Virus record (IMG/VR): IMGVR_UViG_3300029288_000065
Coordinates: 160,001 to 224,000 of that record
Strand: one strand, 5' to 3'
DNA length: 64,000 bases
Source: a virus
Lineage: Duplodnaviria > Caudoviricetes
A program made the position numbers and the translations under genes. Position 1 is the stretch's first letter, and each line of letters starts with the position of its first letter. Positions 1,772 to 63,782 of the stretch are shown piece after piece. Under the pieces are notes generated by a model. It was not told the origin of the DNA. It worked only from the letters and a program-made list of their open reading frames with translations, and ran no database searches.

Positions 1772-2125
1772 CTAGCGATACCACCACCGTTTTTGTCTTA
1801 GACGTCTTAATAAAACATCACGAGATTCACACGTTGGAAATTTGTTTCTTTTTGTGAATGGGATCCCTGATACTGTGTCAAAATACCATTTTTCCAGTTC
1901 ATTGCAAAAATCATACCATTCTGGCCATTTTTCAATTGGTGTACCAATAATTTTATCCTTTAAATCGCTGAGAGGTGTAATATTCATTTCTAACATCATA
2001 TGATATGAATTTATTATCTCTTTTGCAAATTTTTCTACTTGATTTTTGGGTACAGGTGATTTTGGTAAGAACCTACCAACTATTTTGATCAAAAAATCAC
2101 CAATCTTGATCAAAAAATCACTCAT
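1772..2125 (-). CDS. hypothetical protein
   Basis: RBS AGGAG, tiles with neighbours. Confidence 0.6.
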   Translation of the reverse strand: MSDFLIKIGDFLIKIVGRFLPKSPVPKNQVEKFAKEIINSYHMMLEMNITPLSDLKDKIIGTPIEKWPEWYDFCNELEKWYFDTVSGIPFTKRNKFPTCESRDVLLRRLRQKRWWYR

Positions 2126-2135
2126 CTATTTCTCC

Positions 2136-2729
2136 TTAGATGTCAGTTTCCTTAATGCAAGGATCGTTCAACAACAACATCTTCAACACAAACGCATGAC
2201 CCATCTTCTTCGCAGGATCATTCAACACCTGCGACAACGACTTACCCTTGTGATCATACCCATCATAATCCCTCAAAATCAAATCAGTACCACCAGAATG
2301 CAACTGCCACAACTTCTTAAAAGCAGCAGTTTTAACCACAGCATGAGCATACAAAGGAGCATAAATCCTCTTCCTAGCCTCAATATAACCCAAATTCTTC
2401 CCATCCCAAAAACTATACAAAGGCTTAGCACCCTTACCCATAGGATACCTATGAGCAGTCTTATCAGACCACCCCTTCAAAGCCCATTGCCAATATGCCG
2501 TAGACGGAAGAAAACTCCCATCAACATGACTAGTATAGGTATGCTGCTTATAAACCTTCGCAAACTGCCACCCATTCTCAATATTAAACGCAACATAAGA
2601 AGCATACAAAGGACAAGGACCAAGAAGAAAAGGACTCAATTCCTTCCACTCACCAGAATGACTAGTAGTATCAACAACCTGCCCATTCATCCCCTTGAGC
2701 TTCTGGTAGAAACTAACAATCGTAATCAT
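2136..2729 (-). CDS. DUF6939-like protein (possible NADAR-like fold)
   Basis: LSPF...ENGWQFAKVY...YIEARKRIYAPLY...DYD...GHA motifs recalled for this family. Confidence 0.5.
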   Translation of the reverse strand: MITIVSFYQKLKGMNGQVVDTTSHSGEWKELSPFLLGPCPLYASYVAFNIENGWQFAKVYKQHTYTSHVDGSFLPSTAYWQWALKGWSDKTAHRYPMGKGAKPLYSFWDGKNLGYIEARKRIYAPLYAHAVVKTAAFKKLWQLHSGGTDLILRDYDGYDHKGKSLSQVLNDPAKKMGHAFVLKMLLLNDPCIKETDI

Positions 2730-2731
2730 GA

Positions 2732-3028
2732 TTACAATCCTTTCAAAGCTTTGATTACATCGTCCAGGATCTTCTTATTCTCGGTAATATTTCTCCGAAC
2801 CTCTGCAAAAAGGTTGTGTGCCTGTGGATGACACTTAAATTCATCAATAATTCTACCCTTGTAAGTAAAGATCGTCAACGTTGGACATTCACCTTCCACC
2901 AAATCAAGACGATATTCCAAGACAGTAGCCATATATACTACTGGTTTTTCACTTACCTGGTCCCAATGAAGACCACCAATGGTTGTCTTCAGAATAAGAA
3001 TTTCAAAAAAGGAGTCTATTTTATCCAT
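2732..3028 (-). CDS. hypothetical protein
   Basis: ORF tiling, RBS. Confidence 0.6.
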   Translation of the reverse strand: MDKIDSFFEILILKTTIGGLHWDQVSEKPVVYMATVLEYRLDLVEGECPTLTIFTYKGRIIDEFKCHPQAHNLFAEVRRNITENKKILDDVIKALKGL

Positions 3029-3031
3029 TTC

Positions 3032-3430
3032 CTATTCCTTGAAGAGAGGTTTTCGTCCTTCTCTGATGGCTGCTGCTTCAAACATGTCTACATCATCCAT
3101 AATCGAATCCAACAAAACTGCTTCATCGGCGGACACACTCTTTTTCAGATTTTGGAGTAACAACACCTTGTCATATTGTCGGTGCATAGTGTTTTTAATT
3201 TTCTTTGCACGTTCCTCTTCCGAACGCTTACGCTCATCCTTGTAAGTACTATCGTCAAGAACAATCTTTCCACCGCAGTGAGAACAATACTCACCAACCG
3301 CAATGGGTAGAGGGGCAAATGACATTCCAACCTCTTCTGGGGCATCGTACCGGATCTTTTTGCCACATGCCGTCTCCCAATCGTCCCCGTAAGGATCAGA
3401 ACTCTTTTTAGTGTAGACGCATTTCTTCAT
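3032..3430 (-). CDS. Zn-ribbon protein
   Basis: C...WETACG...YCSHCGGKI. Confidence 0.6.
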   Translation of the reverse strand: MKKCVYTKKSSDPYGDDWETACGKKIRYDAPEEVGMSFAPLPIAVGEYCSHCGGKIVLDDSTYKDERKRSEEERAKKIKNTMHRQYDKVLLLQNLKKSVSADEAVLLDSIMDDVDMFEAAAIREGRKPLFKE

Positions 3431-4557
3431 TATGAATTCCTATCCTTTGGCTCAAGCCACTCAATTCCCAGAACATCCAAAATCTCACGCTCCGTAGACT
3501 GAGCAATCACCCTCCCATCACGCAAATCCTCCAACCCATACCTCGTCAACTTCATACCAAGATGCTTCGCCCTCGCCCTACACCTAATGTTGAACTCAGC
3601 ACTCCCAGTAAAAAACAACAAACCAGAACCATAACACTTCTTCGGAACAATCCTCAAATCAATCTGAACACCATCCCTGGCAACAGCCAAAGCCCTCTCA
3701 CTAAGATTCAAATCTGCACCAAGATTCTTACAGAACTTAGCATACTCTCCATCCCCATCATCCCCAGCAATAAGAATATCAATATCCTTGGGATTCTTAC
3801 CCCTTCTTAGGGAGCCGGCAACCTGAACAATAGCATCAGGGAACTTGGCAGAAATAGCACTTACTATCTTATTCGCAATCTCCATAGCATCTTCATGAGG
3901 ATATCTCTTTTTCAACTTGGTTTCCGCCAACTCTTCCAAAAGTTTTGTAGTACCAGTTGTCCTAAGATCATTGATAGTCCTACAAAGAGCAGCTCCCAGA
4001 CCTGGCAATTGCTTTAATTGCTCTTCCGTCAGTTGTTCAAAATTCCTTGCTCTTTGTATAATTCCTGCAGCAGATTTGTAGGATCTAACTCTAAATTCAT
4101 TATCCTCTCCTGAGGATTGCAATCGTTCTGCAATTTCTTGCAGCTTCCCTACAATCTCTGTCTTGGTTAGGATACTTGGGATAGTTTCTGTTCCTGTGAT
4201 TTCGATCTGGCTACTGAGGTACCATTTGGTTCCATCATCACGAACGAGACACCAGGACCCTTTGAGTTTTCCTTCATTGATGTGGAATCGTACCAGGTCT
4301 GGTGTCCGTTCGTCCAGGGTCAATTGGCCTTTTTCCCAGATTTCTACTGTTCCGGCACCGTAACCAGAGGGAATTGTTCCTTCCCAGTCCATATAGGATA
4401 TTTCGTGGTCTTGGACTTGGATTGCGATGCGGATTTTGTCCTTGGAGAATCCTTTTGGGACTGCCCAGGATGGTGCTACTCCGTTTTCTTCAAACCTGAA
4501 GTCGAAATGAAGTCCCGCTCTCAGCGCCTGATGTTTCTGGACTACGAATTTTACCAT
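3430..4557 (-). CDS. polX: LigD-type 3'-phosphoesterase domain fused to family X DNA polymerase
   Basis: N-term FVVQKH.A..LHFDFR.E..GV..SWAVPKG...IAIQVQDH...YGAGTVEIWEKG; PolX AGSLRRG...DIDIL, QIDL, FTGSAEFN, EPKDR; start reassigned to MVKFVV behind a GGAGG RBS. Confidence 0.88.
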   Translation of the reverse strand: MVKFVVQKHQALRAGLHFDFRFEENGVAPSWAVPKGFSKDKIRIAIQVQDHEISYMDWEGTIPSGYGAGTVEIWEKGQLTLDERTPDLVRFHINEGKLKGSWCLVRDDGTKWYLSSQIEITGTETIPSILTKTEIVGKLQEIAERLQSSGEDNEFRVRSYKSAAGIIQRARNFEQLTEEQLKQLPGLGAALCRTINDLRTTGTTKLLEELAETKLKKRYPHEDAMEIANKIVSAISAKFPDAIVQVAGSLRRGKNPKDIDILIAGDDGDGEYAKFCKNLGADLNLSERALAVARDGVQIDLRIVPKKCYGSGLLFFTGSAEFNIRCRARAKHLGMKLTRYGLEDLRDGRVIAQSTEREILDVLGIEWLEPKDRNS

Positions 4558-4990
4558 TGTTGTAGTCCTCCCAGATCGGTTCCAATTCCTCACGAACAGA
4601 GTCCCTAAATTCGACATATTTCTTACCTGATAGTTCTTTGATGCGTGGGAGGAAGATTTCGTTGTAGAACTGTTCACCCATTCGACGGACGATATCCTTA
4701 TCATACATTTCGTCCGTTTGTTCCACTCCACTTAGATTCTTCCAGTAGGATTCAGATTGTTCTGGTACACCATCAAATAGTGGTGTATCTCCTGACTTAC
4801 AAGCACAGTGTTTGGCGGCATTTACTTTCTTGTTGTCGAGAGCGCCACCACCGACTTTGACCCTCTTCCCACCAGCTACGTGTTTGGCTAGCCAGATTGC
4901 TTCTCCTTTGGATTTGTCGTCTGGCATTCCTTTCTTGAGGTTGTTGACGTAGTTGTAGACTGCGAATACGTCAAATCGTCGTAGCATCAT
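4490..4990 (-). CDS. hypothetical protein
   Basis: RBS AAGGAG before MMLRRFDVF. Confidence 0.6.
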   Translation of the reverse strand: MMLRRFDVFAVYNYVNNLKKGMPDDKSKGEAIWLAKHVAGGKRVKVGGGALDNKKVNAAKHCACKSGDTPLFDGVPEQSESYWKNLSGVEQTDEMYDKDIVRRMGEQFYNEIFLPRIKELSGKKYVEFRDSVREELEPIWEDYNNGKIRSPETSGAESGTSFRLQV

Positions 4991-6534: not shown

Positions 6535-6822
6535 CTAGAAATATTTCTCAGCCTCTGCTCGTCGTACTGCACAAGAGATACCCCTTGAGGTAGCCTTGAA
6601 CTGAGAGAATGACCATCCTTCTTTACTTGGACAACATCGGGCGCTGACGGATATCTTACCATCGGAAACGGAAATAGTGACGCTTCCACGGTCAGTAGAA
6701 TACCCAATGCTTCGGATCAAACCATTCACTATATAGGGACTCCATCCAGAGGAGGTGTTGAGCTTTCTTAGAACCTGTCTTAGAAGATTGTCTTCCTGTC
6801 CTAGCTTTTTTAGGTTCCTCAT
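6535..6822 (-). CDS. hypothetical protein
   Basis: ATGA overlap with upstream gene. Confidence 0.55.
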   Translation of the reverse strand: MRNLKKLGQEDNLLRQVLRKLNTSSGWSPYIVNGLIRSIGYSTDRGSVTISVSDGKISVSARCCPSKEGWSFSQFKATSRGISCAVRRAEAEKYF

Positions 6823-7688: not shown

Positions 7689-7736
7689 GCTGCCTCCTTG
7701 TTGGAGTAGTATCATTTTTTGTGAGAAGAGTGAAGA

Positions 7737-7884
7737 GGGGTGGCCAATGGGTGCCTCTCTACCAGTCAGCAATAGCTAAGGTAGCAGACATCCCCCAATC
7801 CTGTGGATCAGAGTGGTCCACAACATTTCCAGGGTCGCTGGATATGCTATACGCGAGACTGGAAGGAAGTCCACTGGTCACCCC
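7737..7884. ncRNA. putative structured RNA element A (long stem, multi-branched cap)
   Basis: intergenic; GGGGTGGCCAATGG pairs with CCACTGGTCACCCC, CCAGTC with GACTGG; inner hairpins; shares an internal loop with 12236-12379. Confidence 0.55.
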
Positions 7885-9432: not shown

Positions 9433-9452
9433 GGTCCTTGAAGAAGGGTTGC

Positions 9453-10109: not shown

Positions 10110-10204
10110 GATCGCCTCTTCTGCTGTCGCTGCGCGCACCAATAATTGCGCATTACGCTTGTATCAGCATGAAGTCATTTGTCAATGGGTCAGAATGTGA
10201 CTTC

Positions 10205-12949: not shown

Positions 12950-13053
12950 AATTACCTATCCAGGAGGTAGCGCTCCACCAACCATCCTTCCTTACCTTTT
13001 TGTGGACCGGTTTGGACACGGACGTAGTAATCACGCCACACATCATTACTGTA

Positions 13054-15018
13054 TCAGCAGCGGATTGCGCGAAGAATCTTCATCTTCGCATTGTGGAGAA
13101 CCTGCCTAACATGCTTTAGATTAACGTCTCTTGCGGCTGCAACAGTCAAGACCCCAGGAATGGTCTTTTCCTTGGTACCGGTATCATCCTTCTCCTTAAT
13201 AGGAGACTTGAATACCAGAGGATACTGGTGAGCAATTTCCTCTACTTCCTTGATTTTCTGATGATCAAGGCCATAAGCCTGAGCGAACACCAGATTCTCT
13301 TCCAGAGTCAAACCAGCAAACTTCCTGGCCGTCTGGACCAGAGGGTAAAACTTCGGATCTTCCTCCAACTCCTCGAAAGAGAGATCCTGGAGCTTCTTGT
13401 CGCCAGCTTCCTGGAACTGGGCAATCCTCTGACGAGAAACGGTCCTGTTCTTGTTGGTATCATTGGTCAACTTGCCGAAGTTATTGGCTATCTCAGAACC
13501 AGCCAATTTCTCCTTCCCGTTGATCCCATAGATGTGCTCCAACACCACACGCTGCTTGTCAGAAAGGACTACTTGGGAAGTAAGCCTGCTTACCAGTTCT
13601 ACCATCTCATTCTGGCTAGCAATCTCATCCGGCTGAGCGAACGGAATACCAGTCTGGAATCCACCATCAGTCCTCTTGGCGAGCAAGTCAGCCTTCTGAG
13701 AATAGCTGACCGTACCAGTCAGGACTCCACCCTCTTCAGGATCTTCTGCCCCATCCAGACTCACAGGATTCCCATGGAAATCAGGATTAGTGGCGAAAAG
13801 CTGAACCAGGTCAGCCACGCATTGGACACGGTCAGAACTACTGGCATTTAGTGATACCTTCCTGGACCCAGGAGTATTGTTGAACTTCAAGTTTAGATAA
13901 TCAACCAGGTAATCCAGAACATCGCCATCCAGGTTTCTGAGGTTAAACTTCCCAGAAACTACCCAAATGTAGACGTTCTTCTGACCAAGTTTCTGGATCA
14001 GTCGGTATTGCCAGTTGGGAGGAGTACCGATTCCCAGACCATCAGTCCCGTTGATAATTTCATAGGACTTGTCAGACTTTGACAGTTCAAGATATGAATT
14101 GAAACCCTGGTCCTTAGCAATTTCGTCCAGTTCTCTGGACCCGATAGGCCCCAGGAAGTTCTCTTCCCAATAAATTATCTCGTCGAGATATTCATATACT
14201 TTGTCCTTTATTTCTTGGATCTTTGTCTCGGATTTTACATCTTCGAAGGATTCATATTTTAGCGTCTGGGCATGCCTGTCCATTTCATGTTGCTTGACTT
14301 TTCCAGTCAGATAGATGGTGATTGCTTGTAGAACTTCGGTCACGGACGGGCGTTTTTCAGGAGTTTTTACGATTCCTGATTGGGCTGACGGGCGGCGTGT
14401 ACTGGTTCTGATTCTGCTGTAGCCGTGCTTGGCGAATGGTGCCATTCCTGCATCGGTCTTGATTGCGAACATCAGGCCTATTGCGCCGTTCTGTTTGCAT
14501 TCGTCCACGTCGCAGCGCTTGGAGTAGTAGCGTTTGGCGTTTTCTCCAATATAATTGCTCATTGCCTCTACGAGTTCGTCTTGTGTCCAGTTGTAGAGGA
14601 GTGGATGTTTGATCTTGTTGAGGGAGTCGAAGGTCTTGGGGAGCTTGCAGAATTCTTCGTATTCTTCCTTGGTCGGGAGGCCTTGGTAGCGGGTAATCTC
14701 GACTCCGTTCACTTTGACTTTTAGGATTTGTGTAATCTTCTTTAGAGTCTTGACTGAGCGTTGGACGTTGAAGAAGATTTGGATTTTTTCTTCCGGGACG
14801 CCGATGGAGAGCAGGTGGTCGCGGATGACTTTTTCGAGTTCTTGGTTTTTGCTGTTGTCTTCTTTCTTTTGTTTCTTGATGCTTTTCTTGTCATAGACGA
14901 TTTCGGCGCGGATGAATTGTTCTGCTTCTTTGTTTCCGATATTAGCCGTCAGGTTCTGACGGATTTCCTCTAGCAGAAGGGCATGATCAGAGACGATGAG
15001 GGGTGGTTCTTTGGACAT
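13054..15018 (-). CDS. divergent sigma70-family RNA polymerase sigma factor
   Basis: region 2-like DVDECKQNGAIGLMFAI...FAKHGYSRIR; region 4-like LSDKQRVVLEHIYGING...EIA...VSRQRIAQ; second region-4-like copy at the C-terminus; AAGGAG RBS. Confidence 0.75.
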   Translation of the reverse strand: MSKEPPLIVSDHALLLEEIRQNLTANIGNKEAEQFIRAEIVYDKKSIKKQKKEDNSKNQELEKVIRDHLLSIGVPEEKIQIFFNVQRSVKTLKKITQILKVKVNGVEITRYQGLPTKEEYEEFCKLPKTFDSLNKIKHPLLYNWTQDELVEAMSNYIGENAKRYYSKRCDVDECKQNGAIGLMFAIKTDAGMAPFAKHGYSRIRTSTRRPSAQSGIVKTPEKRPSVTEVLQAITIYLTGKVKQHEMDRHAQTLKYESFEDVKSETKIQEIKDKVYEYLDEIIYWEENFLGPIGSRELDEIAKDQGFNSYLELSKSDKSYEIINGTDGLGIGTPPNWQYRLIQKLGQKNVYIWVVSGKFNLRNLDGDVLDYLVDYLNLKFNNTPGSRKVSLNASSSDRVQCVADLVQLFATNPDFHGNPVSLDGAEDPEEGGVLTGTVSYSQKADLLAKRTDGGFQTGIPFAQPDEIASQNEMVELVSRLTSQVVLSDKQRVVLEHIYGINGKEKLAGSEIANNFGKLTNDTNKNRTVSRQRIAQFQEAGDKKLQDLSFEELEEDPKFYPLVQTARKFAGLTLEENLVFAQAYGLDHQKIKEVEEIAHQYPLVFKSPIKEKDDTGTKEKTIPGVLTVAAARDVNLKHVRQVLHNAKMKILRAIRC

Positions 15019-15062
15019 GTTCGGCTCCTTTCGTCGCACGAACGGCACGAGATGACACGAGA

Positions 15063-15091
15063 ATTTTACCACATTTGGTGGTTTTTGTCAA
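15063..15091 (-). promoter_or_regulatory. sigma70-type promoter of the phage sigma gene
   Basis: TTGACA-17 bp-TAAAAT with extended -10 TG. Confidence 0.8.
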
Positions 15092-15118
15092 GTATCGAGT
15101 TTGTGCGAATACCAAGAG

Positions 15119-17866: not shown

Positions 17867-17877
17867 CCCTTTCTCTC

Positions 17878-18078: not shown

Positions 18079-18087
18079 TTTATTCTC

Positions 18088-20004
18088 CTAACCAAGAAGC
18101 TTCCGGAAATCCTCCAAAGACACAACAGTGACACCCAAAGAAGCAGCCTTCTGCATCTTACTACTACCACTACCAACATCCTTAGCAACCAAATAATCCA
18201 GACCCTTAGCAACACCAGACTTCTCCTTGGCACCAGCAGCCTGGAATTTGGTAATCTCATCACCCTTCAACCGAACACCAGTAAAACAGACCGACTTCCC
18301 ACTCAGAGGATGACTGGTATTGACCTGAACCTTCTCAGGGAGGGTGATTGTAACATATTTAAGCAATTTCTCGATCTGTGGCTTGGCCTTCTGAATACCA
18401 GCCACAATACCAGGAGCCTTACTCCCTTCCTCACTGAAACCAGCCATATTCCTCAATTGATCAACCGTCACTGCCATAAACTTCTCCAGAGTATCAATCC
18501 CTTGACCCATCATAATCTCAGCTTGACGGCGACCCATGAACTGAATACCCAAGCTACCAATGAAATCGTTTAACTCACAAGACCTGGATTTGTTGATCTC
18601 CACCATAATCTGCTTACTTGCAGTACCAACAATCCCCTGACCCCTCTTGACCTTGTACAGATCTTCTTCCTTGATTGTGTACAGGTCAGCAGGAGTTAAG
18701 ATACTATGGTGGTTGAACAATTCAGCAAGAAGTTCATCGCCAACAAACTTAATCTCCCTTTTGGTAACCCAGTTTTTGAGCCGCTGGAAGGCTTTTCCAT
18801 CGCAGGCGTCATTCTTACAGGTCCAGTGGACTCCTTCCTTAACTAGGTCAGAGTTGCAAACGATACACTTGGTGGGAGGAACAATTGGTTTATTGGTAAT
18901 GTCGATCACCCTATTAACGTGTGGGATGACATCACCAGCACGTTCAACTTCGATTTGGCATCCTTCCGTGAGACCGAGTTCTTTGATATAGTCATAATTG
19001 TTCAGGAGTACATGGGAAATTGTAACACCGCCGACACGGACTGGCTTCAGGACGCCGGTAGGAATCATTGCCCCTGTGTGTCCCTGGGAAACCATGATCC
19101 CTTCAAGGATGGTGATTGCTTTCTGTGATGCAAATTTGACGCATCTTTGCCCCTTTGGCCGCATATCAGAACTCGCTCCGAGTGCAGCCTGGACGAAGAG
19201 ATAATTCGCTCTGACAATTACTCCGTCAATTTCAAAATCAACGAATTCTCGTTCATTCTCAAGATCTTTATAGGCTTTCCAGACTTCTGCTCCGTTGTTG
19301 AATTCTTTATGGTCAACTGTTTGGAATCCCAGTCCTTTGATGAACTCGATTCGTTCCGATTCTGTATCCCATTCTTTCCCGTTGCAGACATCGTAACAGA
19401 TGATATTGAAGTGCTTCTGGAGATCTCCACCTTTCCTGTCTCGGAGGAGTCCCGAGACGGTATTTCGTGGGTTTTGGTATCCCAGTGGTTCGAAGATTTC
19501 TTTAAATTTCTTGACTGCCAGGATGCCTTCGCCACGGATAGAGCCTGTGAAGTTGCTCTTGAGTTTCTTGGGGACGCCAGGGATTTTGAGGACGTTTTCT
19601 GTGATATCCTCTCCCTTGTACCCGTCTCCTCGTGTAACGGCGTTAATTAGTTTGCCGTTTTCGTAGTTGAGAGCTACGGAGTTACCGTCCAGTTTCCATT
19701 GCATGACCAGGATAGGTTTGTTTTCTCCTGTTGCGGAGACAATTCCGTCTACCCATTGGTCGAATTCTTCTCGGTCTTTGAGTTTCTCTTGGGAGCCCAT
19801 TGGGATTTTGTGTTCTACAACTTGTCCGAGTGGGGGCGCTCCGATTTCTTTTAGGACTGTATTTTCGGGGTCCAGGATTCGGAGTTCGTCTACCAGGATA
19901 TCGAAGTCTGAGTCTTGCATGATTGCTGTACCAGTATTATAGTAGGCATCAGATGCTTCTTTGATCTGTTTGGATAGTTGGGCGATGCGTTCTTTCTTTT
20001 CCAT
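18088..20004 (-). CDS. ligA: NAD-dependent DNA ligase
   Basis: AYY...D.DFD, KLDG, TRGDG..GEDIT.N, EIDGVIV, Zn finger CIVC...C...C, HhH motifs, C-terminal BRCT (SVCFTG...SKMQKAASLGV). Confidence 0.97.
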   Translation of the reverse strand: MEKKERIAQLSKQIKEASDAYYNTGTAIMQDSDFDILVDELRILDPENTVLKEIGAPPLGQVVEHKIPMGSQEKLKDREEFDQWVDGIVSATGENKPILVMQWKLDGNSVALNYENGKLINAVTRGDGYKGEDITENVLKIPGVPKKLKSNFTGSIRGEGILAVKKFKEIFEPLGYQNPRNTVSGLLRDRKGGDLQKHFNIICYDVCNGKEWDTESERIEFIKGLGFQTVDHKEFNNGAEVWKAYKDLENEREFVDFEIDGVIVRANYLFVQAALGASSDMRPKGQRCVKFASQKAITILEGIMVSQGHTGAMIPTGVLKPVRVGGVTISHVLLNNYDYIKELGLTEGCQIEVERAGDVIPHVNRVIDITNKPIVPPTKCIVCNSDLVKEGVHWTCKNDACDGKAFQRLKNWVTKREIKFVGDELLAELFNHHSILTPADLYTIKEEDLYKVKRGQGIVGTASKQIMVEINKSRSCELNDFIGSLGIQFMGRRQAEIMMGQGIDTLEKFMAVTVDQLRNMAGFSEEGSKAPGIVAGIQKAKPQIEKLLKYVTITLPEKVQVNTSHPLSGKSVCFTGVRLKGDEITKFQAAGAKEKSGVAKGLDYLVAKDVGSGSSKMQKAASLGVTVVSLEDFRKLLG

Positions 20005-20061
20005 GGTTTCTCCCTTGTTTGTTGTCTTATTGGAAGTATCGTTTGGAAGTCTTTAAGTAAG

Positions 20062-32405: not shown

Positions 32406-32684
32406 CTACAACCAGGTTTCTACTATGCGTGGGTCATCTCCTTCCTGACGTGGTATACAGGTGAGACCATATGGTTCTAGGAAAGCGCGTACTTCTGCGA
32501 GTGTTTTACCAGTTAGGCACAGAGTCATTGGTCTTGCGGTACCATTACCAATTATGAATGGTCTTGCTACGAATAATTCTGGGAAATCGCTTGGTTTCTC
32601 ATAGACTGTCCAAATCAGCATCCGAGGGGCAGCGGGATCTCCCGCTGCCCCTCCATCTTTGCTACTAGCTGGCTGCAGCGCCAT
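32406..32684 (-). CDS. hypothetical phage protein
   Basis: WTVYEKPSDFPE.FVAR...DDPRIVETWL. Confidence 0.6.
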   Translation of the reverse strand: MALQPASSKDGGAAGDPAAPRMLIWTVYEKPSDFPELFVARPFIIGNGTARPMTLCLTGKTLAEVRAFLEPYGLTCIPRQEGDDPRIVETWL

Positions 32685-43420: not shown

Positions 43421-45138
43421 GTCGTCTTCTTCCTCCTACTCTTCTTCTGGCACTCGACGCACCTCTTGACCTGGTGGACATCTTGAGGCTTTACCTCACG
43501 CTGTGCACCACAATCAATACAGGTAATGAAAAGACTCTTTGTCGGAAGGACCTTCTGTTCTGCAGCATGAGGGATCTGATCCTTATACTTGAATATGACC
43601 ATAGCCAATTTTCCTGCAATTTCTTCCAGACTATCAACAAAATTCATGTCGTGTTCTGATGCCTTGTTGTGTGCCAACTCATGGCACAATATACCAAGGT
43701 TCCTGGAACACAGTGGTTTGCTGAAATCTGTTGTTTCCTTCGTATTCCAGCTAACGAAGCATTTCTCTTCGTTGGCCTTGAAATGAGCAATCATAGCACG
43801 ACCAGTATGGTCGCGTTCCTGAATAAAGAAATCAACTTCTACGTTCCGTTCCAGAACCTTTTCGCTCAAGAATTTGATAACCTCAGCGAACTTCTTCTGG
43901 TCATCGGTAAGTGTAGTGACCGATTCCATTTTGTTCTTGGCGATTTCGGTCGAAACCTCCTCAGAATTCTTGACATATTTGGCAACTGCCTCAGTAATAG
44001 AAGCTGCCATGTGTTTGACATCCAGAAGCGAATATCCGTGTTGAGCTGCAACGTCATTCGCTTTCCGGTTCTCAGTCTTGATTACCATAAGTTTGCCATC
44101 TGTAATCTTGTCAACGACTCTCTTCTTCACCTCTTCAGTTGTCCATCCCATACCTTGGATTACCCATTCTTCCTTGGCAATCTCATTGGAATTAATATTA
44201 TCAATCTCATACTTCAGCACCTGACCGAAGAGATATTTAAGATACCATTCACTGACGGTATCCCGATTGTCGTTCAGTGGGACACGTTGCTGAACATCTA
44301 CATGCCAAGGAGCCACGATCTTCTGGATCGGTACTCCCATTTCGAAAAGCCAAGATTCACCCTTCTTGGACTTCCGAATGACAACATCGGTAATTCGGTA
44401 TTCATTTTTCTGAACACCCTGAACGATTACCTGAGTTTCAAGACAGAGACCACGGTAGGTCGTGATTGCATCTGGACGACGAACTTCCTTACCATTGATC
44501 TTGAGGATGAGATTCTCCGGAGGAATTACCTTTTTGAGATATTCAATGGCATCTTCCGGATTCTTCCAGGTATCCAGAGAGGACCAGATTTCTACTTTGG
44601 TTCCTACTGTCCTGGTATTTTTACATTCTTTTCGACCGTCCTTGTCGAATTCGATTGTCAGTCCGATGGTTTCGACGATGGCACGGTCTGCAGCGGAGAT
44701 CAACTCTTTGAGGCCACGACCTTTTCGGCCTCGTTTGGTGGGTTGGTCTTCTTTGTCTGTCATGAATACAGTGGTGATTAGAGAAGGGTCGCTGAAGCCG
44801 TGTTTGCTGTTGTCGCAGATGATGACGTGACCTTGTTCGAGAGTCACTTCTGCGAGGGTGGCATCTTCCAGGTCCAGGACATTGGAGATGCCTTCTCTGA
44901 TGAGGAAGGACATGCTTCGTCCTGCATTGAGACGACGCCAGCCGTCGTTGCTGATTTCAAACCAGGTTTTACTGGTCTTGATTTCTTCAGCTTTGGGTTG
45001 TTCCACAGGCGCTTCCGCCACCATTACTTCCTTTTTCTCGACTTCGAACGTCTCCTCCTTGATGGGAGGGATGGGGAGATCATCGTTGGGTGGTGGAATT
45101 CCAAGATCGTCTTGGGGGATTGGGGGAATGTCACTCAT
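43417..45138 (-). CDS. GHKL ATPase + HExxH metallopeptidase-like + Zn-ribbon protein
   Basis: REGISNVLD, DN..GF, RGRKGRGLK, GTKV; HELAH...H...F; CIDC...CVEC. Confidence 0.7.
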   Translation of the reverse strand: MSDIPPIPQDDLGIPPPNDDLPIPPIKEETFEVEKKEVMVAEAPVEQPKAEEIKTSKTWFEISNDGWRRLNAGRSMSFLIREGISNVLDLEDATLAEVTLEQGHVIICDNSKHGFSDPSLITTVFMTDKEDQPTKRGRKGRGLKELISAADRAIVETIGLTIEFDKDGRKECKNTRTVGTKVEIWSSLDTWKNPEDAIEYLKKVIPPENLILKINGKEVRRPDAITTYRGLCLETQVIVQGVQKNEYRITDVVIRKSKKGESWLFEMGVPIQKIVAPWHVDVQQRVPLNDNRDTVSEWYLKYLFGQVLKYEIDNINSNEIAKEEWVIQGMGWTTEEVKKRVVDKITDGKLMVIKTENRKANDVAAQHGYSLLDVKHMAASITEAVAKYVKNSEEVSTEIAKNKMESVTTLTDDQKKFAEVIKFLSEKVLERNVEVDFFIQERDHTGRAMIAHFKANEEKCFVSWNTKETTDFSKPLCSRNLGILCHELAHNKASEHDMNFVDSLEEIAGKLAMVIFKYKDQIPHAAEQKVLPTKSLFITCIDCGAQREVKPQDVHQVKRCVECQKKSRRKKTT

Positions 45139-45482
45139 TAAAAACTCCTTGCCGTTCTTCGGGGCATGCTTAGAATATCCTGGAGGAATTTTACTCCTCC
45201 TCGTTCGATTAGGAAGACAAATGCGTCGTCCATTGTATCGAACTTTTTAGTCCCTTGAATTTTGAAGGTTGCATCTCCGATGTGTGGGATTGCATCTTCA
45301 TATTGTCCGACTTGGAGTGCTGCTTTTCCGTTTGCTAGGTAGACGTGTGCGTAATGTCCTTTTTCTCCTCCTATGTAGAGTAGCAAGTCCCTGTTTTGGT
45401 CGGAGTGGATTCGATCCACTCTCCAGTGATCTTTACTCTTTGCTGTTTCTTCTTTCCAGGATTTTGCTTCTTCTGGGGTCAT
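45138..45482 (-). CDS. hypothetical protein
   Basis: tiling. Confidence 0.6.
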   Translation of the reverse strand: MTPEEAKSWKEETAKSKDHWRVDRIHSDQNRDLLLYIGGEKGHYAHVYLANGKAALQVGQYEDAIPHIGDATFKIQGTKKFDTMDDAFVFLIERGGVKFLQDILSMPRRTARSF

Positions 45483-45694
45483 TCAAATGCTCTCCACTTG
45501 TAGCCGCATGATTGTATAAGTTCATCGAGTGCTCCTGATGCATCAAAAAGGTCACTACATACTTTCTGATCCCAGTTCTGTTCTACTGCTAGGTCATATA
45601 ATTCCTTGACTTTTTGTGCTCGTTTGATTATTTCATCTGCGTTTCTGGAAAGGTTTTCATGCATTTCGATTTGTAGGTCTTTCATTGCACCCAT
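45479..45694 (-). CDS. hypothetical protein
   Basis: GAGG RBS. Confidence 0.55.
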   Translation of the reverse strand: MGAMKDLQIEMHENLSRNADEIIKRAQKVKELYDLAVEQNWDQKVCSDLFDASGALDELIQSCGYKWRAFE

Positions 45695-45696
45695 AA

Positions 45697-45915
45697 TTAT
45701 CCTCTGAAACTTCTGGCTTCAACTGCTTTGTCTATAATTGCCTGTGCGACTTTTACTGCTGTTTCTGGTGGCAAGCCAATCCAAGATATTTGTTTTCCGA
45801 AGTTGATAATTACGTTTCCATTATAAGTTGTTATTCCGATATTTAGTTCTCCTTCATCTCCAGGTGTTAATTTCCCTTCTGGGAATTTTCCTGTTGGGCC
45901 TGGTTCTTCAGCCAT
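45697..45915 (-). CDS. hypothetical phage protein
   Basis: GPTGKFPEGKL...DEGEL...FGK...WIG. Confidence 0.65.
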   Translation of the reverse strand: MAEEPGPTGKFPEGKLTPGDEGELNIGITTYNGNVIINFGKQISWIGLPPETAVKVAQAIIDKAVEARSFRG

Positions 45916-46338: not shown

Positions 46339-46707
46339 TTATTTCTCGCCTTCGCAGAGATCCTTGTACTTGTCAGAAACTGCCTTTAGATCCTTAATAA
46401 CCTCAGTCGCTCGACCTATATCGAAATTCGGATCAGTAATGTTGAATACTAATTTCTTGCCAACTTCATAATGCTTATTTTCTGGATGATATTTGGCCAC
46501 CAAAAGTGTTTCTTTTTGATCGAAAATTATATAAAGGTTTTGAGTAATGAGTCCACGACATGAGATCATAAGATGATCTTCGTCAGTACCATTCCATACT
46601 TTCCTGATCTTAATCTTTTGCAATACAGTCGTGACACCATAGGACTTAATGGTGTCACGAATGTTCTCCATGAGCGTGCGGTTGAGATTCTCTTCCTTCT
46701 TAGCCAT
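46339..46707 (-). CDS. DP-motif family protein
   Basis: VFNITDPNFDI. Confidence 0.6.
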   Translation of the reverse strand: MAKKEENLNRTLMENIRDTIKSYGVTTVLQKIKIRKVWNGTDEDHLMISCRGLITQNLYIIFDQKETLLVAKYHPENKHYEVGKKLVFNITDPNFDIGRATEVIKDLKAVSDKYKDLCEGEK

Positions 46708-48025
46708 TAACCGTCATGTCCACGCAATTACCCCATTCAGGAGCCTTCGCCTTCTCTCCCGTTTTCTCACGAGCAATCACGAAGATCATCGGGAAAGCAC
46801 GCTTCTCAGGCCAATTACAATAACCATCGGTCAGCATGATACACGCATTCCCGATCAAACCCTGATCTTCCAACCATTTCACAGGAGCCGCCATGTCGGT
46901 ACCCCCACGACCTCGGACCTGGATACGCTTCCAATCACCGCGACGATACCTTCCATACCCCTGGAAGGCATGGTCCCATTGGAGTACATTGACCTTGGCA
47001 CGATAGCAGACTGCCTCGATTTCAGTAAAGAATTGCTCCAGCATCCGGCTGCTCACTGAACCAGAAGTATCAACCACTACCGAGACCGTACAAGCAGCAT
47101 GATGGGAGATTCCCGGTTTCCCAAAGAAATCATGACGCCGATTCCGTCGAGAATAAGTCCACCTCCGATTACCAACATAAGTTCCCATCAGACGGCGGAG
47201 AAGTTCTTTCCACCGAACGACGGGCTTATCCAGAGATTTAAGGATTTCCTTCAGGTGACCAGGAACATGACCTTGGCTCTTCTGGCTGGCCTGGTCACAG
47301 ATGTCCTTGACCACCTGGCGGGCTTCGTCTTCACTGACGTCACTCTGGCCCCAGGTACTGTGATCATCAACGGTATCCCCGAATCCGTCATTGGGTGCGC
47401 CGCCGTCACCAGAACCAGGTTCGTTACTTTCTTCCTCGCCCTGCCCTTGGCCCTGACCCTGTTTCTGCTGTTGTTTCTGTTTGCCTTTCCCGCCACCACC
47501 TTGTGGCTGGCCTTGGCCCTTTCCCTTCCCTTGCTTCTTTCCTTGCGGACCCATCTCGTTCTGTTCCAGCATTTTGTAATATTCTTCTGCAGATAGACTT
47601 TCGTCTACATCACTTGGGCAGTAGATCATGTCTTCTGCTGGCGGGAGGACTTTGCCTTTCTCTTTATATCCTACTCGTGGGTTGTTCTCGCGGCCATTGA
47701 CTGACATGTCTGCCGCGACACCCCAAGTTCGCCGATCCCGTCCACCGGTCCTTACTGGGTGGAGTCGGACGAGGTGTTCGATCAGGTGCTGGACTTGTCC
47801 ATATAGTTCTTTGAGGTTGTGTTTTGCCACGAATGGGGGATAGAAGAGGGCTTGGATTACGCCTCCCTGGACGATTCGGATTCCAAGCTTTCGCTTGCTT
47901 TCGTCGGGGATCCAGCTCATTTGGTTGGGGATCCATTCCATGGACATGGCGACGTGGCCATACCATGGCTCGCGGACCATCAGCCGGCACCTTGCTTCCA
48001 TGAGTTTGTCACTGGTTTCACTCAT
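46700..48025 (-). CDS. DUF2201-like peptidase-domain + VWA protein
   Basis: AR..L....PWYG, W.VAAD..VN, Q/G linker, DDH..W, VDTSGS MIDAS, GRGGTD, TDG. Confidence 0.85.
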   Translation of the reverse strand: MSETSDKLMEARCRLMVREPWYGHVAMSMEWIPNQMSWIPDESKRKLGIRIVQGGVIQALFYPPFVAKHNLKELYGQVQHLIEHLVRLHPVRTGGRDRRTWGVAADMSVNGRENNPRVGYKEKGKVLPPAEDMIYCPSDVDESLSAEEYYKMLEQNEMGPQGKKQGKGKGQGQPQGGGGKGKQKQQQKQGQGQGQGEEESNEPGSGDGGAPNDGFGDTVDDHSTWGQSDVSEDEARQVVKDICDQASQKSQGHVPGHLKEILKSLDKPVVRWKELLRRLMGTYVGNRRWTYSRRNRRHDFFGKPGISHHAACTVSVVVDTSGSVSSRMLEQFFTEIEAVCYRAKVNVLQWDHAFQGYGRYRRGDWKRIQVRGRGGTDMAAPVKWLEDQGLIGNACIMLTDGYCNWPEKRAFPMIFVIAREKTGEKAKAPEWGNCVDMTVNG

Positions 48026-52430: not shown

Positions 52431-52459
52431 AGGCCCCCTCTGGCAGGTAGAGGGGGCCT
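52431..52459 (-). terminator. terminator-like hairpin after MoxR ATPase
   Basis: 11-bp stem AGGCCCCCTCT/AGAGGGGGCCT. Confidence 0.65.
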
Positions 52460-61279: not shown

Positions 61280-61288
61280 ATTGAGGCA

Positions 61289-61945
61289 CTAGGATTTATT
61301 TGACCAAGACGCCAAAATAATAATACAACCTAAGAATCCGACAATAAGGCCAGACCAAAGAAGAATATGCATCAGAAGAACATGAGGATAAAATGAAATA
61401 GCTGCTGGAAGCGTAACCTCCTTACCATCAAGGAGAGTCTCACGCACCCGGATCAAGACGTTACTCCGTTCCAGGGCCGTAGTCTTCGACTCGGTTCCAG
61501 TATTCTCAACCTCCTTCAAAGCTTCACGGGCCTTGACCAGGTTTTCATACCAGAACGAAATATCATTTGACGGGGTACTAAAGATAATACCAGTATTTCC
61601 AGTTGTCAGCCCGTTATCCTTGGCATACTTTAATGCCAAATCTAACTGTTCACCACACTTCTCAGGTGAAGCTGAATCTGCCGCTCGTTTAAGATACTCC
61701 TCACAGTTCCATGAGAATCCAAAACTCTTAATAACCGGTGCCATCAGCAAAATAATACCAAGTAATGCACCGGTTAGCCCTACGAAAAAGATACCACCGT
61801 TACTTGGTTTCCCCACTTTTCTCTCCTCCCTTTGAGCAACTTGCTTGGGTTTGGATCTGGTAAATTCGGTGATAACAATAATGATACAGAATAGTAGCAA
61901 CATCTGCAATGCTGGCAGTAACGATCCACCCTGGGTTATAACCAA
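61289..61945 (-). CDS. membrane protein (start probably downstream, GTG near 61816)
   Basis: TM helices flanking a helical domain. Confidence 0.65.
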   Translation of the reverse strand: MVITQGGSLLPALQMLLLFCIIIVITEFTRSKPKQVAQREERKVGKPSNGGIFFVGLTGALLGIILLMAPVIKSFGFSWNCEEYLKRAADSASPEKCGEQLDLALKYAKDNGLTTGNTGIIFSTPSNDISFWYENLVKAREALKEVENTGTESKTTALERSNVLIRVRETLLDGKEVTLPAAISFYPHVLLMHILLWSGLIVGFLGCIIILASWSNKS

Positions 61946-62228
61946 CTAGGTATTCTCCTCCATTTTCAGTACCAACGTTCTGGAAATTCATACACGGGAT
62001 AGATGTGTCCGGTACGAATTTCCAATTCTTCATAAGATCCAAGAACATTGGAGTTTCACCAGGCTTGTCAATGTACAAATGTGTTTTTGCCCGTAAAATC
62101 TTTTTGTTTGCCCGCTCTTCTGGAGATGATGCCACTGGTCCCAAGTTGGCTCCACAATTTGGACAGGTTTCCCATCCATCATCGTGGAGCCAAGCATGAT
62201 CACAGCTCTCGAAAGGATCTCTCATCAA
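61800..62228 (-). CDS. Zn-ribbon protein
   Basis: CDH...CPNCG. Confidence 0.55.
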   Translation of the reverse strand: MMRDPFESCDHAWLHDDGWETCPNCGANLGPVASSPEERANKKILRAKTHLYIDKPGETPMFLDLMKNWKFVPDTSIPCMNFQNVGTENGGEYLVGYNPGWIVTASIADVATILYHYCYHRIYQIQTQASCSKGGEKSGETK

Positions 62229-62419
62229 CCACCCAGAGTTTGCTTCTGTTGGTTCTTTTCCTCAATCTTGTAGAAGTCAGCGGTCTTCTTGTCGTCGACA
62301 GTGGTTCCTAGCGCAGATTCGATGGCCTTAGTCAGAGCGCCACAACCAGAGCCACTGAATCCTTCGACCTTGACTTCAGTCTTTCCACCCTTACCAATCT
62401 TGATCTTTAGCTTGTGCAT
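62225..62419 (-). CDS. DUF2997-like protein
   Basis: I.I...G.....VEG..G..C..LT..IE.ALG......T.DFY. Confidence 0.75.
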   Translation of the reverse strand: MHKLKIKIGKGGKTEVKVEGFSGSGCGALTKAIESALGTTVDDKKTADFYKIEEKNQQKQTLGG

Positions 62420-62428
62420 CTTTCCTCC

Positions 62429-63574
62429 TTAGTGGCCTTTGTAGTCAAGCATCTTGACTTCCCAATCAATTATACTACCATCTTCATTCCATCTAGAAAT
62501 TAGTACTGGTGCATGTCGTTCGCGGGTATTCCAGCCGGTCTTTCCGTGGATATATTCCTCCTCGAATCCATACAATTCTCCACCATATCTGATACCATAC
62601 TTATCCTTATCGGGTTTGAAACAGAAGAACCCCAATGTAACAATACCATCCTTGAATCCCTTACTACGGAAAGGTTTCCCAATCCAATCGGGTTCCCACT
62701 TCTTATCTTTCCGTTTCTCCAGGAATTCATTTGCCACTTCTTCGGCCTTCTTACAGGCCTTCGCCCACACACCTGATTTCTTCAACTTATCTAGAAAGTC
62801 ATCAGGTTTGACGTGGTTTGTCGCCTTCTTTCCCGGTTCAGGGGCAACTTTACCATACTTTTCCGCGCATTCATAAAATGCTTCGGCGATTGCTGCACAG
62901 CGTTTCTTGTCCACCTTGTGCTGGCTTTCCTGATAATCAGTAAGGTAGACAGGAGTATTAATGTCTTCCATGCTGTCTTCATCAACAACCAATTCCTCCA
63001 TCTCCAAAACGTCACCCTGCTTCAGGAGGGCATGAATCCCTTCACACATCTTGAAGAGATCATTGTTCTTATATGCCGACATCCCATCCACGATACCAAA
63101 GGCGGGGTCATTTTGACCAGCCTTGGCTTTGGCTGTCCCTCTGAGTGCCTTCACAAGCGCTGAGGAAGCAAAAGACGGAGGAAGGATTGATCGGAGTTTG
63201 ATTGCTGCTGCAGCAACCTTGAAGTCGAATACTGTCGGGTTTGGGCCGAAGTGTTTCTTGACGAAGTCTACTACTACCTTATCAGGGATTACCTTCCCCT
63301 TTTCTGGGATCGGTACTTTCACAAGGAGTGGTACTGGCGAGAATCCTTCTGCTACCACCACCTGGACTGATGGGGTTACTGGAAATTGACAATGATTTGA
63401 ACCAGAAACTGTCAGGACGCCGTTGTGTTCGGTGATTGTCACTTCTTTATCACCGTCTTGGAACACACGTACGATGCCGGTTTGGGCGTTTCCGGATTTG
63501 GAAATACGTTTCCAGTTTCCTGGATAGGTCTTGCGGATTTCCTTTACGCAATCTTCGGTGGTGATCTTACTCAT
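62429..63574 (-). CDS. hypothetical protein
   Basis: long ORF with RBS. Confidence 0.7.
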   Translation of the reverse strand: MSKITTEDCVKEIRKTYPGNWKRISKSGNAQTGIVRVFQDGDKEVTITEHNGVLTVSGSNHCQFPVTPSVQVVVAEGFSPVPLLVKVPIPEKGKVIPDKVVVDFVKKHFGPNPTVFDFKVAAAAIKLRSILPPSFASSALVKALRGTAKAKAGQNDPAFGIVDGMSAYKNNDLFKMCEGIHALLKQGDVLEMEELVVDEDSMEDINTPVYLTDYQESQHKVDKKRCAAIAEAFYECAEKYGKVAPEPGKKATNHVKPDDFLDKLKKSGVWAKACKKAEEVANEFLEKRKDKKWEPDWIGKPFRSKGFKDGIVTLGFFCFKPDKDKYGIRYGGELYGFEEEYIHGKTGWNTRERHAPVLISRWNEDGSIIDWEVKMLDYKGH

Positions 63575-63782
63575 TCCTTCCCTCGCTTGATTTTCTGGTA
63601 ACAGTATTGTAGAATTCGATTACGTCTTCTTTGTTTACTCTTTCTTTATGCCCGTTGAATTCGAAGTCAATATCGCATCCGAAATCCAGGCATGCTTTGA
63701 TCGCCGTTAAGAATGCTTCTCTGATGGAGCATCCTTTGTCGATTTCGATGGTCACTTTTGCGAGGTTGTATTCGTTACGCAT
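63567..63782 (-). CDS. hypothetical protein
   Basis: tiling. Confidence 0.55.
   Translation of the reverse strand: MRNEYNLAKVTIEIDKGCSIREAFLTAIKACLDFGCDIDFEFNGHKERVNKEDVIEFYNTVTRKSSEGRNE

Follow-up and report, generated by a model that had tools for sequence, protein, structure and literature searches.

In an uncultured 234-kb phage and part of its clade, freely variable DNA letters run from A/C-rich at gene starts to G/T-rich at gene ends, reaching 97% one way, and this very strong pattern looks like the scar of a one-strand DNA mutation or repair process rather than of codon choice or RNA folding. We found no description of such a pattern for phages. The stretch analyzed, hereafter the window, was 64,000 nt of IMG/VR record IMGVR_UViG_3300029288_000065 (Duplodnaviria; Caudoviricetes), positions 160,001 to 224,000. 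Below, K is G or T and M is A or C on the coding strand, and K3 and K4 are the G+T fractions at third and 4-fold degenerate sites. Genes were taken as greedy longest ORFs rather than curated calls. The original prediction of blockwise switching between A/C- and G/T-ending synonymous codons was confirmed, and its hand counts were exact: 14 of the first 50 and 47 of the last 50 ligA codons end in G/T, and plus-strand G+T is 0.63 at 19801-19950 and 0.30 at 18091-18240. The two genes cited as exceptions to a gene-bound rise, 2136-2729 and 6819-7772, also held. The features examined are collected in the table.

Features of the keto (G+T) sawtooth in the window (K4 is for the first and last thirds of the gene)
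Position	Strand	Feature	K4 first/last third	Observation
2080..63780	.	Region of the finding		Sawtooth of third-position keto content across minus-strand genes; continues over the whole 234-kb contig
2136..2729	-	DUF6939 gene		About 97% G/T-ending from its start, over 190 codons; this extreme K block casts a shadow ORF on the + strand at 2046-2831
3430..4731	-	PE-PolX gene (LigD 3'-phosphoesterase plus PolX)	0.38/0.77	Neutral for 85 codons, A/C-rich at codons 85-240, then about 97% G/T-ending over the last 130 codons
6819..7772	-	Radical SAM gene		About 90% A/C-ending throughout; start of a multi-gene domain from the drop point near 7752 to that near 2069 (nine genes, M then K)
13054..15072	-	672-aa gene, no Pfam hit	0.23/0.62	A/C-ending at codons 45-260, then G/T-ending; drop point at about 14938
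18088..20004	-	NAD-dependent DNA ligase (ligA)	0.24/0.82	Near-linear K3 rise from 0.2 to 0.95; K block ends at the stop codon
20394..21074	-	Gene, exception		G/T-ending from near its start (about 95% at codons 30-140), abrupt drop in mid-gene
32624..32653	.	Perfect 13-bp GC-rich palindromic hairpin		Next to the drop point at about 32595
35216..36766	-	AAA ATPase gene	0.26/0.56	Drop point at its start (36761)
44600..45915	-	A/C-ending block		Covers three small genes and the first 180 codons of 43417-45138, then a step to G/T-ending; the unit is not strictly one gene
46700..48025	-	DUF2201_N/VWA-like gene	0.19/0.71	
52431..52459	-	GC-rich 11-bp-stem hairpin (terminator-like)		In the gap upstream of gene 52083-52400; K3 falls there from 0.63 to 0.34

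To ask if the swing was confined to degenerate positions, 4-fold sites were tabulated by gene quintile for window genes of 200 aa or more. From the first to the last quintile A fell from 0.375 to 0.20 and C from 0.32 to 0.21, while G rose from 0.14 to 0.21 and T from 0.17 to 0.38. In NNY codons C fell from 0.58 to 0.40, and in NNR codons A fell from 0.71 to 0.39, whereas positions 1 and 2 were nearly flat. In addition to the genes in the table, K4 rose from 0.30 to 0.82 in the 56652 gene and from 0.24 to 0.66 in the 58988 gene, and the DUF6744 and MoxR-like (52483) genes also rise. The comparison with codon-shuffled genes, named beforehand as a test of the prediction, upheld it: in 200 synonymous shuffles within genes the mean last-minus-first-third K3 was 0.007+-0.010 (maximum 0.037), against 0.153 observed, and the within-gene variance ratio of 50-codon windows was 0.86+-0.08, against 3.89 observed. 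The swing is thus synonymous-site-deep and not an amino acid effect.

The pattern is genome-wide, as 108 of 127 genes of 200 aa or more were positive (p=1.5e-16), on both strands; genes of the two orientations showed the same polarity (50 of 64 and 50 of 63). Near-identical DNA is assembled independently in four studies, so the pattern is not an assembly artefact. Five related metagenomic loci share the pattern (variance ratio 3.7-9.2), but it is absent in one relative of similar distance (1.47), in two remoter ones (1.07 and 1.28) and in T4 (1.19).

The profile is a sawtooth that is invariant under reverse complement, with gradual rises inside genes and sharp K-to-M drops at gene or operon boundaries. 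Strong drops lay at gene ends in 12 of 15 cases, and strong rises lay in mid-gene in 9 of 9. Of 70 drop points, 49% were within 10% of a gene end, against 19+-5% for circular shifts, and their median distance to a gene boundary was 62 nt, against 161 nt for shifts and 288 nt for the rise points. The time-reversal asymmetry of the sawtooth was, however, only modest across 20-kb blocks (p=0.024), and the A/C maximum lies 50-80 codons inside genes rather than at the boundary. Of the seven places at which resets had been proposed, six match drop points within 300 nt (7752, 14938, 20290, 36761, 45907 and 53668), and nothing matches 23.9 kb. Periodicity was not confirmed, as the autocorrelation decays to zero by about 1.2 kb with no later peak.

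We next asked whether the pressure acts on codons or on nucleotides. With Leu and Arg codons excluded, K at positions 1 and 2 tracked local K3 (slopes 0.12 and 0.10, p about 1e-12); Gly, Leu, Trp and Ser rise in K blocks, and Glu, Ile, Asn and Thr rise in M blocks. Intergenic G+T followed the flanking K3 (slope 0.33, p=9e-6). The pressure is therefore on nucleotides, not on codon decoding. The 4-fold composition is roughly reverse-complement symmetric, being A 0.49, C 0.28, G 0.10 and T 0.14 in M blocks and A 0.18, C 0.08, G 0.16 and T 0.58 in K blocks, and neutral blocks obey parity. When ligA was compared with its 93%-identical relative, third-position differences were mostly C/T and A/G; the K/M state is already randomised to the local frequency, while G/T transversions are at about a fifth of saturation, and the M-to-K crossover has shifted.

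The explanation we favor, with only modest confidence, is that the pattern is the accumulated footprint of a clade-specific, strand-asymmetric substitution pressure belonging to the DNA metabolism of these phages. In this view one DNA strand is locally driven toward G/T by transitions (C->T and A->G on that strand), slower AT pressure then makes it T-rich, and which strand is driven changes with position. Read 5'->3' on either strand, G/T content rises gradually and then drops sharply at anchor points at gene or operon boundaries, so that the strand whose 3' end points toward the nearest anchor is the G/T-rich one. The analysis itself shows that the pressure acts on all codon positions and on intergenic DNA, is invariant under reverse complement, is anchored near gene ends, turns over fast by transitions and is clade-specific. 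The cause is an inference, namely repeated single-strandedness of the driven strand, or strand-biased heteroduplex repair, spreading from the anchors. One route would be 5'->3' resection at recombination or repair junctions; junctions that survive selection would sit mostly between genes, which would explain why the anchors share no motif. The alternative would be a transcription-unit-linked exposure. Several considerations weigh against this reading. The substitutions were unpolarised, so selection or biased gene conversion on the same axis is not excluded, and 97% purity needs a rate asymmetry of about 30-fold, as extreme as in vertebrate mitochondria. Anchoring at gene boundaries, including some with no intergenic space such as the ligA stop, is what an expression-linked selective cause would also give, and no motif, promoter or terminator class was found to be shared by the anchors. 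No RecA/UvsX, family A or B polymerase, or dCMP/cytidine-deaminase-type domain (PF00383) to carry the proposed mechanism was found in the contig, which is estimated to be 89% complete. The argument from sign holds only if template damage, not misincorporation, makes the bias.

The interpretation offered with the original prediction, periodic strand-asymmetric mutation from many local replication or repair start sites or else selection for long-range fold-back, was partly supported. A strand-asymmetric mutational origin fits best, and neither a single replichore nor a constant transcription skew appears to explain the swing. The argument that co-orientation of the genes excludes ordinary processes was not supported, because a sawtooth invariant under reverse complement follows gene orientation automatically once the drop points sit at gene boundaries. 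Also not supported were periodicity, local replication origins at the resets, and fold-back.

Of the alternatives, selection on transcripts survives best, although we consider it unlikely. Cistrons would be kept A/C-rich, and so open, over their 5' parts and G/U-rich, and so more folded, toward their 3' ends, for ribosome loading, translational coupling at K-M junctions, or protection from 3' decay. Some drop points at gene boundaries leave no room for a DNA signal, and selection on RNA composition would also move positions 1 and 2 and transcribed spacers. In 120-nt windows the first quarter of genes folded more weakly than in shuffles (-16.4 against -20.8 and -23.7 against -27.6 kcal/mol), and the last quarter more strongly (-34.1 against -26.6). 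There was, however, no net change of local or whole-gene folding energy; for local 120-nt energy z ran from -4.5 to +0.5, never less folded than shuffles. Further, whole genes can be all-M or all-K, drops occur in mid-gene, some units span nine genes, and the crossover moves between 93%-identical relatives. The major capsid gene shows only a weak gradient, which selection for expression would not predict, and the pattern is lacking in one relative of similar ligA distance with similar neighbouring genes, as well as in the two remoter ones and T4. Translational codon selection, i.e., a 5' codon ramp or tRNA wobble preference, likewise did not fit, given that positions 1 and 2 and intergenic DNA follow the skew, the capsid gene is weakly patterned, and the blocks extend over hundreds of codons.

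Less likely still are replication-fork polarity domains, in which the skew would report which strand is copied as the leading strand. GC and TA skews do move together, as in replication skew, the profile is a sawtooth with linear stretches, and the + strand is G/T-rich over the whole contig whatever the gene orientation (K3 0.564), so some genome-wide polar process exists. But with the usual sign (leading strand G/T-rich) the sharp switches would be termini, and the origins would be diffuse and intragenic every 2.7 kb or so, which is implausible; fixed origins at the resets need a reversed sign. An Okazaki-template exposure model predicts a sharp rise and a gradual fall, the opposite of what is seen, and there is no periodicity. 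Mosaic ancestry, in which blocks were imported from donors with different strand skews or in different orientations, is very unlikely. Some block ends do coincide with the edges of AT-rich clusters of small ORFs, e.g., downstream of ligA, but polarity is consistent in 108 of 127 genes, gradients within single conserved genes such as ligA are smooth, orthologues in relatives carry the same kind of gradient at shifted positions, and excess variance depends only weakly on GC or length. Finally, selected long-range pairing of the A/C-rich 5' half with the G/U-rich 3' half of each mRNA or ssDNA has only the complementary composition of the halves in its favor and can be all but dismissed, as pairs between the first and last thirds in minimum-energy folds of four genes of 675-846 nt numbered 13, 27, 19 and 28, against 27+-16, 13+-13, 36+-17 and 22+-17 for global synonymous shuffles, and shuffles that keep the gradient fold as well as shuffles that destroy it.

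A more far-reaching reading, tentative and somewhat less likely than not, is that this clade of uncultured giant myoviruses has an undescribed DNA process that writes its own polarity map into the genome. From anchors at gene or operon boundaries, the strand ending 3' at the anchor would be converted toward G/T by transitions over about 1 kb, strongly enough to recode whole genes to over 95% G/T-ending or A/C-ending codons, perhaps by recombination-junction resection with deamination or by strand-biased heteroduplex repair. If so, the skew profile reads out where single-stranded DNA or heteroduplex forms in a phage that has never been grown, and the process could also explain GRINS-type skews in bacteria. 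Strand skews are the main sequence-only record of how DNA is copied, repaired and transcribed, and here the record is unusually strong (5-fold overdispersion, blocks of 97% purity), fine-grained (about 1 kb) and switched on or off between related phages. Phylogenetic profiling could thus find the responsible enzyme, the unexplained GRINS skews of bacterial gene clusters could be tested against the same cause, and the polarity of ssDNA exposure in uncultured viruses could be read from sequence alone. In practical terms, the skew distorts codon-usage-based host prediction, gene calling (the shadow ORF is an example) and synonymous-rate estimates in these phages.

The nearest published analogue is GRINS (Nivina et al. 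2021, PNAS, PMC8256042). There too, intense, positively correlated GC and TA skews occur in blocks of a few hundred bases, are strongest at third codon positions and flip sign abruptly within genes on one strand; Gly, Val, Cys and Trp against Pro, Thr, His and Gln shift with the skew, and single-strand deamination or an error-prone polymerase has been discussed as a possible cause. The phage DNA satisfies the GRINS skew criterion (mean absolute GC and TA skews above 0.15, positively correlated): at 2001-4000 GC skew is -0.32 with an AT skew of opposite sign, G+T is 0.35-0.68 in 300-nt windows, and A/T and C/G at 4-fold sites shift together. GRINS, however, are defined as duplicated regions (over 500 bp, over 80% identity) tied to gene conversion in polyketide synthase clusters. 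The phage DNA fails this criterion, as the longest direct repeat in the 64-kb window is 48 nt at 75% identity and there are no inverted repeats of 40 nt or more. The phage skew is also genome-wide, with a consistent 5'->3' polarity and anchoring at gene boundaries. In vertebrate mitochondrial DNA, C->T and A->G on the heavy strand are reported to rise with time spent single-stranded (Faith and Pollock 2003). As in the phage, both transitions act on one strand, and the asymmetry is extreme at 4-fold sites, graded with position, and spills over into amino acid composition; but mitochondrial DNA has one gradient per genome, tied to two known origins, whereas here about 70 short domains of alternating polarity are tied to gene boundaries. 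Transcription-associated mutational asymmetry, a reported excess of G+T on the coding strand of mammalian genes (Green et al. 2003; Polak and Arndt 2008), runs on the same compositional axis, with position-dependent asymmetry near the 5' ends of transcription units. That effect is weak and of one sign, whereas in the phage the coding strand is G/T-rich only in 3' parts and carries the opposite sign in 5' parts (K3 down to 0.1), with an amplitude an order of magnitude larger; drop points lie near gene starts and ends, but consensus scans, in the absence of known TSSs, gave no clear link. Lastly, the replication skew N-domains of mammalian genomes (Touchon et al. 2005; Huvet et al. 2007) are also reported to form a sawtooth of summed TA and GC skew, with sharp jumps and linear stretches between them. 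Their shape is opposite, as the jumps go up at origins and the skew declines slowly between them, and their scale is megabases, whereas the jumps in the phage sit at gene boundaries every 2.7 kb or so.

The 233,959-bp IMG/VR viral contig, of which the window is bases 160001-224000, is estimated to be 89% complete. The contig encodes a T4-type major head protein, portal, large terminase, tail sheath and baseplate wedge, as well as a class I ribonucleotide reductase and helicases. In the window lie an NAD-dependent ligase, a PE-PolX fusion, a radical SAM protein, AAA ATPases and DUF2201/VWA and DUF6744 proteins. Nearly all window genes are on the minus strand, whereas genes in 0-130 kb are mostly on the plus strand. 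To look for near relatives, 20 kb was compared by megablast with the INPHARED phage set, with no match, and a search of IMG/VR for related loci with ligA found no relative; tblastn found only ligases of 30% identity or less in cultured phages. When positions 13000-22000 of the window were sought in public sequencing runs, the same phage, nearly identical, was found at low depth in assemblies of landfill (2018-2019) and groundwater (2022) metagenomes from four studies, with pieces of 250-1000 nt showing no differences. The sequence is therefore not an assembly artefact. No RNA data set was listed among the runs with this DNA. A diverged strain shows runs of third-position differences in ligA.

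In what follows, K means G or T and M means A or C on the coding strand, K3 and K4 are the G+T fractions at third and 4-fold sites, and a drop point is a sharp K-to-M fall. The original prediction, that codon endings swing from A/C to G/T along co-oriented genes, was correct as an observation. Its hand counts of codon endings and of plus-strand G+T were exact, every gene for which a swing had been claimed shows the rise, and both of the exceptions it had named are real. In 300-nt windows, plus-strand G+T ranges from 0.35 to 0.68. At 4-fold sites of window genes of 200 aa or more, composition changes monotonically by gene quintile: A goes from 0.375 to 0.20, C from 0.32 to 0.21, G from 0.14 to 0.21 and T from 0.17 to 0.38. 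Two-fold codons do the same, while positions 1 and 2 barely move. It had been set beforehand that the swing should fail if it vanished at 4-fold sites or was no stronger than in shuffled genes. The 4-fold sites reject an amino-acid composition effect and, against 200 synonymous shuffles within genes, the mean last-minus-first-third K3 is 0.153 versus 0.007+-0.010, and the within-gene variance of 50-codon windows is 3.89 times binomial versus 0.86+-0.08. Both of these tests are therefore passed. Restriction of the pattern to GC-rich or long genes is also rejected, because the dependence is only weak (rho 0.19 with GC, 0.06 with length). The extreme blocks are listed in the table; such blocks will mislead longest-ORF gene calling here, because a strongly skewed gene can cast a longer open ORF on the opposite strand.

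To ask how far the pattern extends, the same measures were taken across the contig and in relatives. Genome-wide, 108 of 127 genes of 200 aa or more rise (p=1.5e-16), and plus-strand genes rise on their own coding strand just as minus-strand genes do (50 of 64 and 50 of 63). Independently of this sawtooth, the plus strand is somewhat G/T-rich at third positions everywhere, whatever the gene orientation (K3 0.564 overall; coding K4 about 0.58 in plus genes and about 0.42 in minus genes), a genome-wide polar asymmetry that does not flip at about 130 kb, where gene orientation does. The same pipeline on T4 bases 1-50000 gave no gradient (-0.012) and a variance ratio of 1.19. Metagenomic relatives found through the ligase show the pattern at 93, 64, 59, 50, 49 and 45% ligase identity; five of these loci are long enough to score, with variance ratios of 3.7-9.2. 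In the 372-kb relative, whole genes run at 80-100% G/T-ending after a lower start. In contrast, a relative at 46% identity with similar neighbouring genes lacks the pattern (1.47), as do two remoter ones (1.07, 1.28). The trait is clade-specific and can be absent in a relative at a similar ligase distance.

A profile that rises gradually and drops sharply when read 5'->3' looks the same on the complementary strand. Following gene orientation therefore needs no link to transcription, only that the drop points lie at gene boundaries, and this is what we found. Of the strongest 15 drops, 12 lie within 7% of a gene end, and all 9 of the strongest rises lie in mid-gene. Of 70 drop points taken from the cumulative curve (median spacing 2.7 kb), 49% lie within 10% of a gene end, against 19+-5% for circular shifts (maximum 0.33 in 300 shifts). 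Their median distance to a gene boundary is 62 nt, against 161 nt for shifts and 288 nt for the rise points. Units are not always single genes, as the multi-gene domain and the A/C block in the table show. In the two giant genes (1786 and 2140 aa) the A/C zone lasts about 1 kb, a plateau follows, and the last 1 kb or so is G/T-rich. There is no periodicity, as the autocorrelation falls to zero by about 1.2 kb. Increments are negatively skewed, but only modestly across 20-kb blocks (p=0.024).

Features of the window and of related loci bearing on the skew pattern
Location	Strand	Feature	Observation
2136-2729	-	DUF6939 gene	about 97% G/T-ending codons over 190 codons
2046-2831	+	shadow ORF (261 aa)	longer open frame opposite the gene at 2136-2729
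9438-10145	+	ORF opposite 9453-10142 (-)	longest-ORF gene calling misled here also
3430-4731		PE-PolX gene	last 130 codons about 97% G/T-ending
6819-7772		gene	about 90% A/C-ending codons
about 7752 to about 2069		skew domain	runs across nine genes
45915-44600		A/C block	covers three small genes and 180 codons of the next gene
20394-21074	-	gene with the reverse layout	about 95% G/T-ending at codons 30-140, then an abrupt drop in mid-gene; may be a fused or mis-called pair of ORFs, or an anchor inside a gene
about 15.09 kb		promoter-like site	coincidence in consensus promoter scan
23003-23027		perfect GC-rich hairpin	stem in the 10-13 bp range, short intergenic gap
32624-32653		perfect GC-rich hairpin	stem in the 10-13 bp range, short intergenic gap; coincidence in terminator scan (32.6 kb)
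52431-52459		perfect GC-rich hairpin	stem in the 10-13 bp range, short intergenic gap; coincidence in terminator scan (52.4 kb)
about 61250		perfect GC-rich hairpin	stem in the 10-13 bp range, short intergenic gap
L003:9008-9838 and L004:1359-2255 (loci of relatives)		LAGLIDADG homing endonuclease gene	just upstream of the ligase, where it splits off the Nlig-Ia domain
L006:1-1328 (locus of the 372-kb relative)		AAA ATPase	carries an intein

To ask if a sequence signal marks the drop points, a k-mer enrichment search (k = 6-8) was carried out, and nothing survived multiple testing. The T4 late-promoter word TATAAATA and sigma-70 hexamers are not enriched at drop points or upstream of genes, and consensus promoter and terminator scans gave only the few coincidences listed in the table. 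Some of the hairpins sit at skew drop points; they are likely terminators or cruciform-prone sites. The intergenic halves at strong junctions are intermediate in composition (0.55, 0.51), and so do not show whether the switch sits at a TSS or at the start codon. Given the endonuclease gene and the intein in the relatives, homing-type DNA breaks occur at gene edges in this clade.

We next asked at what level the pressure acts. Positions 1 and 2, with Leu and Arg codons excluded, follow local K3 with slopes of 0.12 and 0.10 (p about 1e-12), amino-acid usage shifts accordingly, and intergenic G+T follows the flanks (slope 0.33, p=9e-6). The 4-fold composition is A 0.49, C 0.28, G 0.10, T 0.14 in A/C blocks, A 0.35, C 0.17, G 0.14, T 0.35 in neutral zones, and A 0.18, C 0.08, G 0.16, T 0.58 in G/T blocks. 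This is roughly a reverse-complement pair around a parity-obeying middle, with little dependence on neighbouring bases. Between the window's ligase and its 93%-identical relative, third-position differences are mostly C/T and A/G. The K/M state is already at the discordance expected for independent draws (0.28 observed, 0.26 expected in the 3' zone), while G/T differences are at about a fifth of saturation. The relative is more G/T-rich in the middle zone (49 against 29), so the crossover moves quickly. A fast, strand-asymmetric transition process, plus slower AT pressure that sets T over G and A over C, explains these compositions, and codon-decoding selection is rejected as the sole cause.

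To ask if RNA structure might be the target of selection, folding energies were compared with those of synonymous shuffles. For four genes of 675-846 nt, native minimum free energy is not weaker than in the shuffles, and three of the four are somewhat more stable. Shuffles that keep the gradient and shuffles that destroy it give the same energy, and pairs between the first and last third are not enriched. For six long genes, the mean energy of 120-nt windows has z from -4.5 to +0.5, never less folded than shuffles, although the A/C-rich first quarter folds a little more weakly and the G/U-rich last quarter a little more strongly. These results do not support fold-back or general structure avoidance. 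A 5'-open, 3'-folded gradient is a consequence of the skew and remains a possible target of selection.

The interpretation offered in the original prediction was partly supported: its mutational half is plausible, but periodic origins and long-range fold-back are not supported. The feature is real, very strong and unexplained, and we favor, with moderate confidence, a clade-specific, strand-asymmetric DNA-level substitution process anchored at gene or operon boundaries. The sawtooth, the clustering of its drop points at gene ends, its reach into all codon positions and intergenic DNA, and its restriction to part of the clade are shown by the analysis, whereas strand exposure, deamination, resection and repair are inferred. 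If exposed single strands gain T and G by deamination of C and A, which is established chemistry and the accepted basis of mitochondrial and bacterial skews, then the exposed strand here would be the one whose 3' end points to the nearest drop point. This fits 5'->3' resection spreading from breaks or recombination junctions, and equally fits strand-biased repair of heteroduplex next to junctions. Junctions that survive selection would lie mostly between genes, which would explain anchoring without any shared motif. Within the favored process, this recombination/repair ssDNA version and a transcription-unit-linked version are about equally likely. All sign arguments, these and those on the other models below, reverse if the bias arises from misincorporation by a gap-filling polymerase rather than from template damage, and the phage does carry a PE-PolX next to a ligase. 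Pfam and PHROG scans of 40 large proteins gave no candidate deaminase or replicative polymerase, and searches of the contig for PF00136, PF00476, PF00154 and PF00383 found no family B or family A DNA polymerase, RecA/UvsX or dCMP-deaminase-type domain. The replicative polymerase is either very divergent, in the missing 11% or so, or absent.

A translation-reset R-loop model, in which naked RNA behind the polymerase grows along each cistron, explains the rise and the reset but does not explain A/C purity of 90%. Exposure of the strand whose 3' end points to the nearest drop point does not fit three other models: lagging-strand template exposure between fixed priming sites predicts a sharp rise and a gradual fall, R-loops near promoters predict G/T-rich 5' ends, and origins at the resets would need a reversed sign.

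Literature searches for keto or nucleotide skew in phages or within genes returned nothing closer than GRINS (PMC8256042), the only printed description of the same compositional phenomenon that we found. The defining repeat criterion of GRINS is not fulfilled by the DNA examined here, and GRINS are not reported to have a gene-anchored 5'->3' polarity. GRINS, whose mechanism is likewise unknown, nevertheless show correlated GC and TA skews that are strongest at third positions and flip within genes on one strand, with matching amino-acid shifts.
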